35,884 bases of DNA from Candidatus Altiarchaeota archaeon (GTDB taxonomy: Archaea; Altiarchaeota; Altiarchaeia; IMC4; SCGC-AAA252-I15): contig JAZDMS010000015.1 in assembly GCA_043800705.1 (NCBI GenBank), forward strand, positions 1 through 35,884. Direction: 5' to 3'. Within the stretch, counting starts at the first letter, position 1; every line of letters starts with the position of its first letter. Positions 21,535-35,144 of the stretch are shown piece by piece. The notes under the pieces are model-generated. The model searched no databases, was not told where the DNA came from, and saw only the letters and a program-made list of their open reading frames with translations. The position numbers and the translations under genes were made by a program.

Positions 21535-24051
21535 ATGAAAAAATATGTTTCCACATTTTCTGCTGCGATAACAATATATTGCCTGATTGGAATAGCTTGC
21601 GCATACGAATATGCAGGATTCGACAAGTTCGTCGACGACGTGAAAGGCGCCATAGTCAAGCCTACGCCTTCGACTACGCCTTCCTCTCCCACTACGACTA
21701 TTTCCCCGTCTCCTACCACCACCCTGGGAACAAATAGCATAAATCCCTTAAACTACGTAGCTGACATAATCAGTCCCTCATCATCGACCGATGACACCTC
21801 CATCCGAATCATAACACCCGAACCAATACTCGACGATGTCGACGTCAAAGACAAAAGCCTCCCTCCAGGAAAGGTTACTCAACTTCGCGCCGACTACAAC
21901 GCTGATGTCGTATTCAACCAGCTCACAGAAAACTCCGAATACTGCTTCAGAGACTGTTACGCGGAATACGTCATGAACAACAAGGAAGAAATACCGTTCA
22001 GCAATCTCCGCATAGAATTCTACCACGACGACCACACATTCCAGCAACCATCAGATAACATCATATCCTACCAGATCAAGATATGGAACGGCGAATCCTG
22101 GGCCAGCACACAGACAATACCCAAAGGCCAATTCAGGATCCGCATAGAAGGAACCAAAGCCAGAGACGAAGACACGGCCTGGAGGCCGGTCATCGAATAT
22201 TCCCAGGTCAGGGTGAAACAGAGCAGATGGGCGCTGTGGAAGAAAGGGGCGGAACAGACGCCGAGCACGGCAAGCGGAGTGATCGGATTGTACCATTTTG
22301 AAGAGTCAGGGTCGACCTCGGTAGCTGACAGTTCCGGCAATGGGTATAACGGCGTTTCTTCAGCTACTATTGTCCCGGAAACGGGCGTATTAGGCAATGC
22401 AATTAATTTTTCGACAACGAGAAACGTAAGCATCGTCACAAACGCCTACAAATCGGGGAATATCAGCATCAGTTTCTGGATCAGGCCGAACTCTACGGGA
22501 GCGGATCGTTACCCGCTGAACTTGTACAGTACGGCATCGCTTAATCGTGGGATATTCCTCGAAGTGCAGCCAGGCGGGCGGGTCGGTTTTTATACGGCGA
22601 ATGGAACTTCAACTGCCAGAGCGGTTTACCTGGATGGTTTGGCTTACAACAAATGGAATCTGATAACCTATTACCGCAATCAAACGGGCGCCACCACATG
22701 TGTCGAACGTATCTGCCTGAATACCACCTGCTCGGCGGAAGCTAATTGTCCCATCAGCAACGGCATAAGCTGGGGCGCCGATAACGTCGTCCTCGGAACA
22801 ACGACGGGAGGGGGGAACTATCTTGCCGGCCGATGGGATGAGCTGCGGATCTATAATCGGATAATAACGCCAAGTGAAGTAAGCGACCTATATGCTTTTA
22901 CCTACCCGGTCGCCATCTACTCCCTGAATGAGGCGAGCGGTAACGCAGCTGACTTCTCAGGAAATTCGTACACTTTAGGAGCATTCAACTCTCCAACATA
23001 CTCCCAACCGGGCGTATTTGGTTCAGCAATAAAATTTGATGGTGTCAATGATGTTCTAAATATGACCTCAAATGGTTTTATGGATATTTCTTCATCAAAT
23101 TTTACCATCTCCTTATGGACTAAGCCAACGGGTACTCCGAGCGGGGGCGTATTAGTCGGTCTACGTGCAAGCGGTTTCCCATTTTGGTCGCTTCAATATT
23201 ACGATGCAAACCAAGGGTTTAGGATAAGCGGCAAGAACGATTCATCAATTGATTATAGTGGAGTTGTAATTAACAATACTTTGCCGAGAGGAGTTTGGAC
23301 AAACCTTGTCGTGGTAGGGTATGGTGACTCCTTTAATGTTTATGTGAATGGAAGGTATAATACCACTCAGACAATATCCCGTTGGAAGACTACTACACTT
23401 GGATTTTCTATCGGGGAATTGATAAGAAATGCTGGTGCTACTGCTGATAACCCGTATAATGGCACGATTGATGAAACCATTTTTTACAGGCGAACGTTAT
23501 CCCCCCTAGAAGTCCAGAACCTCTACGAGTCCGGTCTCACCCAGCTGAACATCACATCTCCGGCCAATAACACCGTGTTTTCTGAAGACGGGGGCGAGGT
23601 CGACGCCGTCGTTGGTTTCCCAGACCAAACCATAGCAAACATCAGTTTCAGGGACATCTCAGGCAGCTGGCTCACACTGAAGAATAACGCGGTAGAGACG
23701 AACTTTAGCAACGTCAAACTGACCAAACTGAACGCAACCCACTACAAGGTCAACGCCACATATGTCGAACCTGTGGCTGGAGCCTATAATGTCACCCTTC
23801 TTGCGTGGGGCGGGAGCGGGCTTGTTACATCCGCGAGCCAGATGCTATTCTTCAGCGTAAACAGTTCCTTCCAGTTCGGCGGAGACTCCGTCCTCAGAAC
23901 AAAGTATGGCGGTCTGAAGATTATGCCTTCTAATAACCTCCTGTATCTGGAGTTGATGAACCTCACCATGAAGAGGCCTGACGGCCAATACACCTGTTGC
24001 GGGCCCGATAATAGCAACGGGTGGGTGTGCGTCAGCGGAGCGTGCGGGTAA
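21535..24051 (+). CDS. Secreted protein with two LamG/concanavalin A-like domains
   Basis: GAGGTG precedes ATG 21535. Signal peptide and Pro/Thr/Ser linker. Two copies of Y.F/L.E..D.SGN..G..G.A..F..IS.W..G..DE..Y.R (Laminin_G_3 pattern). The C-terminal tip is Cys-rich. Confidence 0.85.
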   Translation: MKKYVSTFSAAITIYCLIGIACAYEYAGFDKFVDDVKGAIVKPTPSTTPSSPTTTISPSPTTTLGTNSINPLNYVADIISPSSSTDDTSIRIITPEPILDDVDVKDKSLPPGKVTQLRADYNADVVFNQLTENSEYCFRDCYAEYVMNNKEEIPFSNLRIEFYHDDHTFQQPSDNIISYQIKIWNGESWASTQTIPKGQFRIRIEGTKARDEDTAWRPVIEYSQVRVKQSRWALWKKGAEQTPSTASGVIGLYHFEESGSTSVADSSGNGYNGVSSATIVPETGVLGNAINFSTTRNVSIVTNAYKSGNISISFWIRPNSTGADRYPLNLYSTASLNRGIFLEVQPGGRVGFYTANGTSTARAVYLDGLAYNKWNLITYYRNQTGATTCVERICLNTTCSAEANCPISNGISWGADNVVLGTTTGGGNYLAGRWDELRIYNRIITPSEVSDLYAFTYPVAIYSLNEASGNAADFSGNSYTLGAFNSPTYSQPGVFGSAIKFDGVNDVLNMTSNGFMDISSSNFTISLWTKPTGTPSGGVLVGLRASGFPFWSLQYYDANQGFRISGKNDSSIDYSGVVINNTLPRGVWTNLVVVGYGDSFNVYVNGRYNTTQTISRWKTTTLGFSIGELIRNAGATADNPYNGTIDETIFYRRTLSPLEVQNLYESGLTQLNITSPANNTVFSEDGGEVDAVVGFPDQTIANISFRDISGSWLTLKNNAVETNFSNVKLTKLNATHYKVNATYVEPVAGAYNVTLLAWGGSGLVTSASQMLFFSVNSSFQFGGDSVLRTKYGGLKIMPSNNLLYLELMNLTMKRPDGQYTCCGPDNSNGWVCVSGACG

Positions 24052-24052
24052 A

Positions 24053-34393: not shown

Positions 34394-34427
34394 TAACTTT
34401 TATTCATATACCTTTGAAAAAAGAAAA

Positions 34428-35144
34428 ATGAAAGTTAAAAAAATGGAAAATAATAATAAAACCACAACACTGCTTTTACCATATATTTTAATAGGAGGCA
34501 TACTTTTTTCAGATAGTATTTTAAGTGTGATGATCTGGTCAATTCTAGCTATCCTAAGTTATTTTTTGATTATTAATAGTATTATCAAACAAAAGAGGGG
34601 AATATCTCGTTATCTATTAACTTTGATAATAATTTTACTAGTCATATTTTTCCACTTATCAATCTTACAGCTATTAAATATTACTCCAAAGATTTTCCAA
34701 CAATCCCAAAAAATCCCTCAAGAAGATGTAATATCAATGATAGATTTTAACAACAAACTGAATGATATTACTTCAAGAATGATTGTATCAGCAGAAAAAC
34801 AGAATTATACTTTATCAAAAAATTTGAAAAATGATTATGATCAATTAAGATTTCAAATTTATAATTTGACTAAATTCAATTGTCTAAAGACTAAACAAAA
34901 AACTGTAAAAGCACTCTATGTTTGTCAAAATCTAGAATATAGCTGGAAATGCCAACAAACAGAATCAAAATTAATTGGTCTTTCAACAGAACTTAATAGA
35001 CCAGATCTATCAAAAAATGAATGTATTAGTTTAACAAAACAGATTTTTTCCTATACTGAAGAAATAAAAGCTTGTAATACAGTCATAAACTCTTCTTTAT
35101 ATCTAACAGAAATGGAAAATATTGATAAAAAATGTGATATTTGA
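34428..35144 (+). CDS. Membrane-anchored protein, putative immunity protein 2
   Basis: AT-rich ORF just after the orphan cassette, with ~3 N-terminal TM helices and then a helical domain carrying several Cys. The start is at 34428 or 34443. Confidence 0.62.
   Translation: MKVKKMENNNKTTTLLLPYILIGGILFSDSILSVMIWSILAILSYFLIINSIIKQKRGISRYLLTLIIILLVIFFHLSILQLLNITPKIFQQSQKIPQEDVISMIDFNNKLNDITSRMIVSAEKQNYTLSKNLKNDYDQLRFQIYNLTKFNCLKTKQKTVKALYVCQNLEYSWKCQQTESKLIGLSTELNRPDLSKNECISLTKQIFSYTEEIKACNTVINSSLYLTEMENIDKKCDI

Follow-up and report, generated by a model that had tools for sequence, protein, structure and literature searches.

The window analysed here is the whole of contig JAZDMS010000015.1 (35,884 bp), from a 2.0-Mb genome bin of a Candidatus Altiarchaeota archaeon (assembly GCA_043800705.1; 43 contigs, 87.55% complete). 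Six plus-strand genes, here called O1 to O6, lie at positions 21535 to 35144. The best overall explanation is that they form a polymorphic toxin locus of the Rhs/YD type, exported by Sec and situated on an island of lower GC at the contig end, a reading to which we assign a probability of roughly 0.7 from sequence and model comparisons. The narrower statement, that the locus is an Rhs/YD polymorphic toxin-immunity system, appears very probable: the shell repeats, a core with a DPxG motif before the tip, a hypervariable tip and an orphan module are all present. The shell (O2) and the core with its toxin-like tip (O3) are encoded by two genes, and each product has its own signal peptide. The genes and their parts, with lengths in amino acids (aa), are as follows.

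21535 to 24051, plus strand: O1, secreted LamG protein, 838 aa (ATG at 21535; the longest frame starts from GTG 21526)
24053 to 29527, plus strand: O2, TcB-like RHS shell, 1824 aa, without Rhs core and without tip
26942 to 27508, plus strand: O2 insert, aa 964-1152, Cys-containing, without counterpart in the shells of relatives
29529 to 31769, plus strand: O3, 746 aa, with signal peptide, last RHS turns, Rhs core and 240-aa tip
29529 to 30422, plus strand: O3 N-terminal module, with signal peptide (aa 1-28), weak discoidin-like region, immunoglobulin (Ig)-like domain and Thr-rich linker
30423 to 31046, plus strand: O3 aa 299-506, last RHS turns and Rhs-associated core
31047 to 31769, plus strand: O3 tip, aa 507-746, with three predicted hydrophobic Gly/Ala-rich helices, linker, small alpha/beta domain and tail
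30003 to 31049, plus strand: direct repeat, copy 1, inside O3
31801 to 32562, plus strand: O4, multi-pass membrane protein, 253 aa, GC 0.274, four hydrophobic segments
32657 to 34393, plus strand: O5, orphan, 578 aa, without signal peptide; Ig-like domain, linker, RHS end, core and tip
32630 to 33676, plus strand: direct repeat, copy 2, 5' part of O5
34428 to 35144, plus strand: O6, 238 aa, GC 0.248, with two hydrophobic segments near the N-terminus and a soluble part that contains Cys

Gene order and export signals

An earlier sequence-only reading had described a complete toxin-like locus in this region. Open reading frame (ORF) calls reproduce its six co-oriented genes and its end coordinate, 35144. 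The locus is present, but its completeness is not shown, as the contig ends 740 bp past O6. The same reading had drawn attention to an identical junction, TAAAATG, between the first three genes. The heptamer is found at 24049-24055 and 29525-29531 as described, but is unremarkable in itself, with 4 occurrences in the window against 3.06 expected and at least 4 in 38 of 100 shuffles. At both the O1/O2 and O2/O3 junctions the stop-start spacer is one base. O6 most likely starts at 34428, since a start at 34320 would run into O5, and a 238-aa call identical to the shorter form is found in the protein collection.

Signal peptides on O1, O2 and O3 were judged by inspection and a Kyte-Doolittle scan. 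Each protein has a charged start, a hydrophobic stretch (aa 4-24 in O1, 3-25 in O2 and 3-23 in O3) and a putative small-residue cleavage motif (ACA/YE, VFS/QT and AWA/NE, respectively, with the slash at the cut). Sec-dependent export, as proposed in the sequence-only reading, fits these signals.

The shell and the core

After its signal peptide, O2 consists of an SpvB-like N-terminus, an FG-GAP propeller, a TcdB mid/N region and RHS repeats. Pfam matches are RHS_repeat (PF05593, E 9.8e-30), TcdB_toxin_midN (E 4e-12), FG-GAP_3 (E 9.3e-9) and SpvB (E 2.6e-6), with TIGR01643 from NCBIfam at E 3e-20, and its sequence matches in the PDB are Rhs effectors and teneurin-like proteins. The insert was delimited by nine relatives' frames from seven genomes, in which the alignment to O2 stops at 962-965 and restarts at 1152-1206. 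It has no Pfam family and, searched alone, no similarity to the shell of metagenome contig L037, which has a segment of similar length and undetectable similarity at the same site. The position is possibly a hot spot where decorating domains are added.

The Rhs core is found in O3 (TIGR03696 at aa 429-506, E 3.1e-20) and again in O5 (aa 262-339, E 6.3e-19), and these are the only two in the genome. In O3, R462, D475 and D502 correspond to the Arg and two Asp of TccC3, and their conservation across an alignment of 21 sequences is at least 90%; the core directly precedes the tip. PMC9935623 and PMC10684867 describe the Arg and two Asp as required for autoproteolysis. By this alignment the O3 core is predicted to be an aspartyl autoprotease cutting after H506. 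An AlphaFold2 (AF2) model of the whole of O3 has a mean predicted local distance difference test score (pLDDT) of 51 and is confident only at 300-470 and 640-700; residues 298-492 of the model superpose on the C-terminal end of the RhsP, YenC2, TccC3, RhsA, Tse5 and teneurin shells with Z 11-15. The discoidin-like region nearer the N-terminus matches F5_F8_type_C at E 4.5e-4, under the curated cut-off.

Fission of a single-chain protein

The phylum was represented by 61 species genomes (a search at class level gives the same 61), 12 of which contain Rhs cores. There are 24 core matches in this set, six of them within frames of 1462-2175 aa. In seven relatives' frames (L014, L018 and L022-L026) a match to the tail of O2 is followed, 14-74 aa on, by a match to O3 from residue ~300, all in one open frame. 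O2 and O3 are collinear with these single-chain RHS proteins, and the pair is therefore taken to be the product of a gene fission, which the sequence-only reading had not seen in its shell and tip genes. In the same-genus genome G003 the shell is followed by segments 26-35% identical to O3 39-282 and then by Ig-like repeats; the shell and these discoidin/Ig-like segments form one 2205-aa frame, cut by the contig end. Judged from these alignments, the fission lies where extra domains are tolerated, and O3 aa 1-298 is an extra module.

A comparable split is found on L037. Its O2-like shell (45% identity) ends in a Thr-rich linker, and the shell gene overlaps by ATGA with a second gene, which has its own signal peptide leading directly into RHS sequence. 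The second gene is 56% identical to O3 300-506 and has a different tip. Three more short genes combine a signal peptide with terminal RHS/core and tip (G014:C15, G008:C350 and G014:C17), which makes five examples with O3 and L037. Signal-peptide-like N-termini occur on five full-length relatives as well. A join of O2 and O3 through frameshifting or read-through was considered and dismissed, given that the frame of O3 is +1 and that a signal peptide opens the second gene both here and in L037. On balance, we lean slightly towards O2 and O3 functioning as one shell.

Another arrangement was seen at L019 (G016:C8), where three core+tip ORFs stand in tandem at 6060-10299; behind every one of them comes a small gene of low GC (221, 111 and 110 aa) whose product has hydrophobic segments. 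At E <= 1e-10 that genome gave no match to an O2-like shell.

Tips and the orphan cassette

The O3 tip has predicted hydrophobic Gly/Ala-rich helices within aa 510-594, a small alpha/beta domain at aa ~640-700 (pLDDT 71-90) and an acidic/Ser-rich tail with the end motif IYKPYYLGG. The tip of O5 (aa 340-578) has diverged from it but retains its layout of hydrophobic helices, small domain, Ser/Asp-rich tail and ...IY.P.YLGG end (here IYHPWYLGG). In BLASTP, O5 is near-identical to O3 over O3 168-506, while the tips are about 24% identical (E 5e-6); the catalytic residues are intact in both proteins. At the nucleotide level the two copies of the direct repeat share 81.8% identity over 1049 nucleotides (nt), rising to 97-98% at 30214-30393, and identity breaks off at 31050, immediately behind the DPTGH codons of the cleavage motif, with 25-53% past 31053. 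The 97-98% identical stretch suggests recent gene conversion.

The sequence-only reading had suggested a comparison of the neighbourhood across relatives, and the tips indeed proved highly variable behind a constant motif, NRYSYxxNNPxxYxDPxG. Of the 171 pairings among 19 tips behind this motif, those of O3 and O5 included, just 7 show likeness at E <= 1e-3. The toxin-immunity-orphan layout that it had recognised is likewise borne out by the Rhs core before the tip, by O5 as a copy of O3, by the variable tips of relatives and by the low-GC genes downstream of them.

The tips have no Pfam family at E <= 1, and a tip profile against the PDB gave nothing meaningful. In 1.84 billion representatives the O3 tip has three matches: itself, a 318-aa orphan-like protein and a repetitive, spurious one. 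A single relative of the O5 tip was found (P0003), which comes without genomic context. The tip-only AF2 model (mean pLDDT 39.6) was not used for fold search, and the small tip domain gave only middling matches in structure comparison (Z 5-6.5), which we leave uninterpreted. In the ESM Atlas the best score for the O3 tip was 0.89, and the nearest named clusters were polymorphic-toxin pre-toxin families at ~0.8; this serves as a lead only.

Membrane permeabilisation is the activity we favour for the tip because of the hydrophobic helices, the membrane-protein neighbours and the precedents of Tse5 and ionophoric contact-dependent inhibition (CDI) toxins. From these sequence features we rate the chance that the tip acts on membranes as about even. 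Elsewhere, the non-hydrophobic tips of L022 (G015:C33) and L021 (1635-2828) resemble each other (E 1.6e-9) and are followed by non-membrane low-GC genes (302 and 272 aa); from their sequences, they are likely a different, cytoplasm-acting toxin class.

Candidate immunity genes

As the sequence-only reading had noted, each tip is followed by an AT-rich membrane gene, and O4 and O6 are mutually unrelated (best E 0.83). By position and sequence, O4 is a candidate immunity protein for the O3 tip, and O6 a candidate for that of O5. A similar arrangement recurs among relatives: 16 of 17 tip ORFs have an ORF of GC 0.21-0.39 within 45 nt downstream, 13 of these 16 with hydrophobic segments, and the 17th tip ORF is cut by its contig end. 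In one pair of beta-rich tips (33% identity, E 4e-23), the downstream proteins with two transmembrane (TM) segments are alike too (E 6e-6).

Two O4 homologues, one in G027:C264 (E 3e-9) and one in G020:C33 (E 2e-6), each come immediately behind a hydrophobic RHS tip, and a profile search of the 61 genomes adds one more, in G009:C75 (E 3.9e-12). Of the four occurrences of the O4 family, three (own genome, G027 and G020) are placed behind RHS tips, and the last stands alone. That gene (L034 1462-2169) lies beside two small ORFs, which, by eye only, resemble a ribbon-helix-helix/RelE-like toxin-antitoxin pair. It is possibly an orphan immunity gene; independence from RHS fits as well.

A word-index search with O4 gave no scored matches. 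The ESM Atlas gave a best score of 0.86, with DUF5079 at 0.82, again as a lead only. Complex prediction for the O3 tip with O4 scored 0.00; controls were not run, and the score is evidence neither way.

The LamG protein

O1 opens with a signal peptide (aa 1-23), and its mature N-terminus reads YEYAGFDK...; it has two LamG domains, and at its C-terminus lies a cysteine module (aa ~781-838) that ends ...CCGPDNSNGWVCVSGACG. Laminin_G_3 (PF13385) matches in two stretches at E 1.3e-31, best at 520-664, so that O1 has the LamG jelly-roll of Laminin_G_3/concanavalin-like lectins. Both ends of the mature protein recur elsewhere. The N-terminus (YEYAGFDKFVDDVKGAI) is found again at the mature N-terminus of the L037 RHS shell protein; the motif YEYAG[FY]DK..DVK.AI, at window 21604-21654 and L037 ~3428, is unique within its own genome. 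The cysteine module, ...RPDG.Y.CCGPDN.N.W.C, ends several secreted proteins of the phylum, three of which adjoin RHS genes or fragments. Sites of the module are listed here.

C-terminal cysteine module: window 23875-24048; L050 4204-4272; L041 ~458; L054 ~190; L051 ~3724

In G020:C33 a 222-aa protein encoded two genes before the RHS gene terminates in the module, and the L041 protein with the module at its end is followed by an RHS fragment. RHS is not nearby in G009 (three modules) or G046 (one), and the contig of G006:C48 is too short to judge context. The sequence-only reading had cast the LamG protein as a targeting or tethering partner. Adjacency and the two shared terminal motifs speak for such a partnership, but the linkage is not conserved in relatives, and on sequence grounds we propose O1 as a functional partner of the RHS proteins only tentatively.

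The genes just upstream of relatives' RHS genes (L023 3-788, L024 2-871 and L050 3616-4281) encode proteins of fibre-like appearance with repeated GNVG(V/I)GT..P..KL.V.G motifs. It seems that in relatives the place of O1 is taken by accessory proteins of other kinds.

Genomic setting

Small- and large-subunit rRNA in the bin are archaeal, which confirms the archaeal origin assumed in the sequence-only reading; mcrA was searched for and not found. A scan of genome contigs with O3 matched only a single bacterial locus, which is uninformative on taxonomy. GC content is 0.585 at 1-21305 and 0.464 at 21306-35884. The locus is bounded on this contig by the following stretches.

21306 to 21534, plus strand: AT-rich intergenic stretch before O1; left edge of the lower-GC island
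35145 to 35884, no strand: contig tail without long ORF, where the assembly stops

The first of these is presumed, from its position and composition, to be the promoter region. No synteny was found with the same-genus genome around that genome's RHS gene. Among the products of the window's left part are ELP3-like, M50 and primase-large-subunit-like proteins. A small ORF at 20655-21305 (likely ATG 20841), with a weak primase-large-subunit match (E 1.6e-4), is divergent from a pabB-like gene exactly where GC drops and may mark a mobile element border. Further upstream, at 9319-17790, there are three large co-oriented ORFs of 797 aa, 917 aa and 852 aa; the 797-aa ORF combines a papain-family protease domain with thrombospondin type 3 repeats, and the three are possibly an extracellular protein-degrading set.

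Relation to known systems

By its sequence features, the locus belongs to a recognised type of system whose presence in archaea had been predicted before, here in a variant architecture. The orphan-module layout of Rhs polymorphic toxins is defined in PMC4436062, RHS toxins with cassettes were predicted in Methanosarcina acetivorans (Zhang et al. 2012, PMC3482391), and archaeal polymorphic toxins lacked experimental characterisation as of 2021 according to PMC8416519. We searched the literature from 2019 on for archaeal Rhs, orphan or YD-repeat toxins and found no paper; split RHS genes with two signal peptides were not specifically sought. The locus shares with the Rhs/YD systems of E. coli and Salmonella the shell, the core with DPxG, the variable tip, the downstream immunity-type gene and the orphan module. 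It differs from them in belonging to an uncultured archaeal phylum, in dividing shell and core+tip between two genes, each with a signal peptide, and in having tips and downstream genes outside described families.

For the export route, the closest parallel is WapA/WapI of Bacillus subtilis, WapA being a Sec-dependent bacterial precedent (PMC4436062). WapA, however, is a single chain whose front binds the cell wall and whose tip is a tRNase, whereas here an SpvB/TcdB-like front, a split protein, a hydrophobic tip and membrane-protein neighbours are found. The BC cocoon of toxin complexes (Tc; TcdB2-TccC3, YenB-YenC2) resembles the locus in the TcB-like domain set of O2, the two-chain shell and the conserved aspartyl autoprotease residues, and O3 298-492 superposes on the end of TccC3/YenC2 with Z 14-15. 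Unlike its Tc counterpart, O3 contributes only ~200 aa, which align with the end portion of TccC3 (residues 1975-2190 in the 4o9x fusion); both halves have a signal peptide, and immunity-type genes and an orphan cassette are present. Tc subunits are not known to carry signal peptides.

The working model for the O3 and O5 tips is the hydrophobic, helix-forming C-terminal fragment of Pseudomonas aeruginosa Tse5 and of the C-terminal toxin region of CdiA (CdiA-CT), and is held by analogy. PMC10684867 describes Tse5 as an Rhs protein with a pore-forming fragment inside, freed by the Rhs aspartyl protease, and PMC11630599 describes ionophoric CDI toxins (CdiA-CT); such fragments depolarise target membranes. 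The tips here have no similarity to solved or Pfam toxins, and delivery of Tse5 and CdiA-CT is by type VI and type V secretion instead of Sec. The mosquito proteins SGS1 and SGS4 share a lectin-decorated RHS shell and TM helices past the protease site, followed by a C-terminal domain, as described in PMC9935623. Unlike the proteins here, SGS is a eukaryotic salivary protein, a single chain without signal peptide and without immunity or orphan genes. Tox-SGS, the domain that follows the helices in proteins of this type, is a Pfam entry.

Proposed mechanism and alternative explanations

If the locus is a Sec-exported Rhs/YD toxin system, O1, O2 and O3 would be co-transcribed and translationally coupled, then exported by Sec. 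Outside the membrane, O3 would complete and plug the O2 shell, and the core would cut after H506 while the hydrophobic tip stays shielded inside. Binding to a neighbouring cell would fall to lectin-like regions (the O1 LamG domains, the O2 propeller and insert, the O3 discoidin/Ig module), and the released tip could there put its Gly/Ala-rich helices into the target membrane and dissipate the membrane potential. O4 and O6, in the producer's membrane, would neutralise their cognate tips. Recombination across the 1-kb repeat could bring the O5 tip into the expressed gene.

Several observations count against this picture or parts of it. No RHS protein is known to assemble outside the cell from separately exported halves. 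The core+tip gene of G008:C350 sits among unrelated genes without a shell nearby, and therefore O3 may not need O2. Hydrophobic helices after a signal peptide could be stop-transfer anchors in the producer, and AF2 models both the tip helices and O3 1-298 with little confidence. On the immunity side, the O4 homologue of G009:C75 has unrelated genes around it, the 6 kb examined include no RHS gene, and O6 has no credible homologue in the protein collection or the 61 phylum genomes, only itself and chance-level matches. The tips that precede O4-family genes are themselves distant: the O3 tip matches that of G027 at E 0.005, and that of G020 not significantly by BLASTP and with 28.6% probability in profile comparison. 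It is therefore chiefly the O4 family that carries the notion of a shared tip class paired with a shared immunity class. Finally, LamG was not adjacent to RHS in the relatives searched, and their LamG contigs have no RHS matches.

The alternative that fares best makes O3 a stand-alone secreted lectin-toxin, its discoidin/Ig part a binding module and its Rhs core only a self-cleaving linker, with O2 a separate or decapitated shell and the tip not enclosed. Short genes of signal peptide, terminal RHS/core and tip do occur away from shells, as in G008:C350; that of G014:C17 starts nearer the core, and at G014:C15 there is no O2-like sequence in the ~1 kb upstream left on the contig. Against this, O2 and O3 are one base apart and together collinear with single-chain relatives, no shell segment being missing or duplicated, and the shell-adjacent split recurs in L037. 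A very hydrophobic tip would also need shielding, and O3 298-492 models as a shell-closing part with no obvious use alone. We regard a stand-alone O3 as unlikely.

Less likely still is a non-toxic, teneurin/SGS-type role in surface recognition or adhesion, with the tip as a membrane anchor plus small cytoplasmic domain, O4 and O6 as its partners and variability serving self/non-self discrimination. The abundance of lectin-like domains in O1-O3 would suit it, as would the best PDB sequence match of O3, mosquito SGS4 (E 1e-12), whose alignment runs from the core into the hydrophobic helices; about 230 aa of predicted TM helices past the protease site are described for the lectin-decorated shell of SGS1 in PMC9935623. 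The same paper has teneurins without the last Asp, whereas the R/D/D residues for tip release are intact here. A search of the PDB with the tip profile alone gives no match, and the likeness to SGS is therefore one of architecture. Orphan cassettes that come with a downstream partner gene, and tips with extreme turnover, are the hallmark of toxin-immunity conflict.

We see little to recommend the idea of a decaying, horizontally acquired island in which the split is a disruption, O5 a dead fragment and nothing is made any more. The GC of the island (0.464 against 0.585), the contig end, the lack of synteny with the same-genus relative and the missing signal peptide of O5 could be read that way. 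Yet all six frames are open and long, a well-formed signal peptide lies exactly at the split here and in the independent split of L037, and the intact catalytic residues of O3 and O5, together with the nearly identical repeat stretch and the recent conversion it suggests, speak against decay. A Tc (ABC)-type toxin against eukaryotes or bacteria, with O2/O3 as a BC cocoon docking to a TcA-like translocator encoded elsewhere, is hardly credible despite the SpvB, FG-GAP and TcdB mid/N regions of O2 and the alignment of O3 to TccC3/YenC2: both halves have signal peptides, the split lies ~200 aa before the core and not mid-shell, the membrane-protein genes after each tip argue for self-protection and hence a target like the producer, and the TcA families PF18276 and PF03538 were not found in the genome, a weak point given 87.55% completeness and control genomes that were silent too.

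Implications

With two candidate pairs of tip and immunity protein in one operon-like array, the locus read as a Sec-exported Rhs/YD system offers a compact test case, and it shows that RHS systems are distributed across an archaeal phylum about which little is known. As families, the tips are new candidates for membrane toxins and the O4 proteins for immunity. The recurrent fission, with an export signal on the core+tip half, raises the question of whether an RHS cocoon might be assembled and loaded outside the cell. One speculative answer, which we think more likely wrong than right by a wide measure, is that the RHS toxins of the phylum are a kit assembled outside the cell from a Sec-exported core-less shell, core+tip plugs with their own signals and accessory CCGPDN proteins. 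Were this so, core+tip subunits would load the shell with a membrane-active tip, and lectin or fibre proteins would dock via the CCGPDN module. Tips would then be exchangeable at the protein level besides by recombination, in an ABC-toxin-like machine without TcA.

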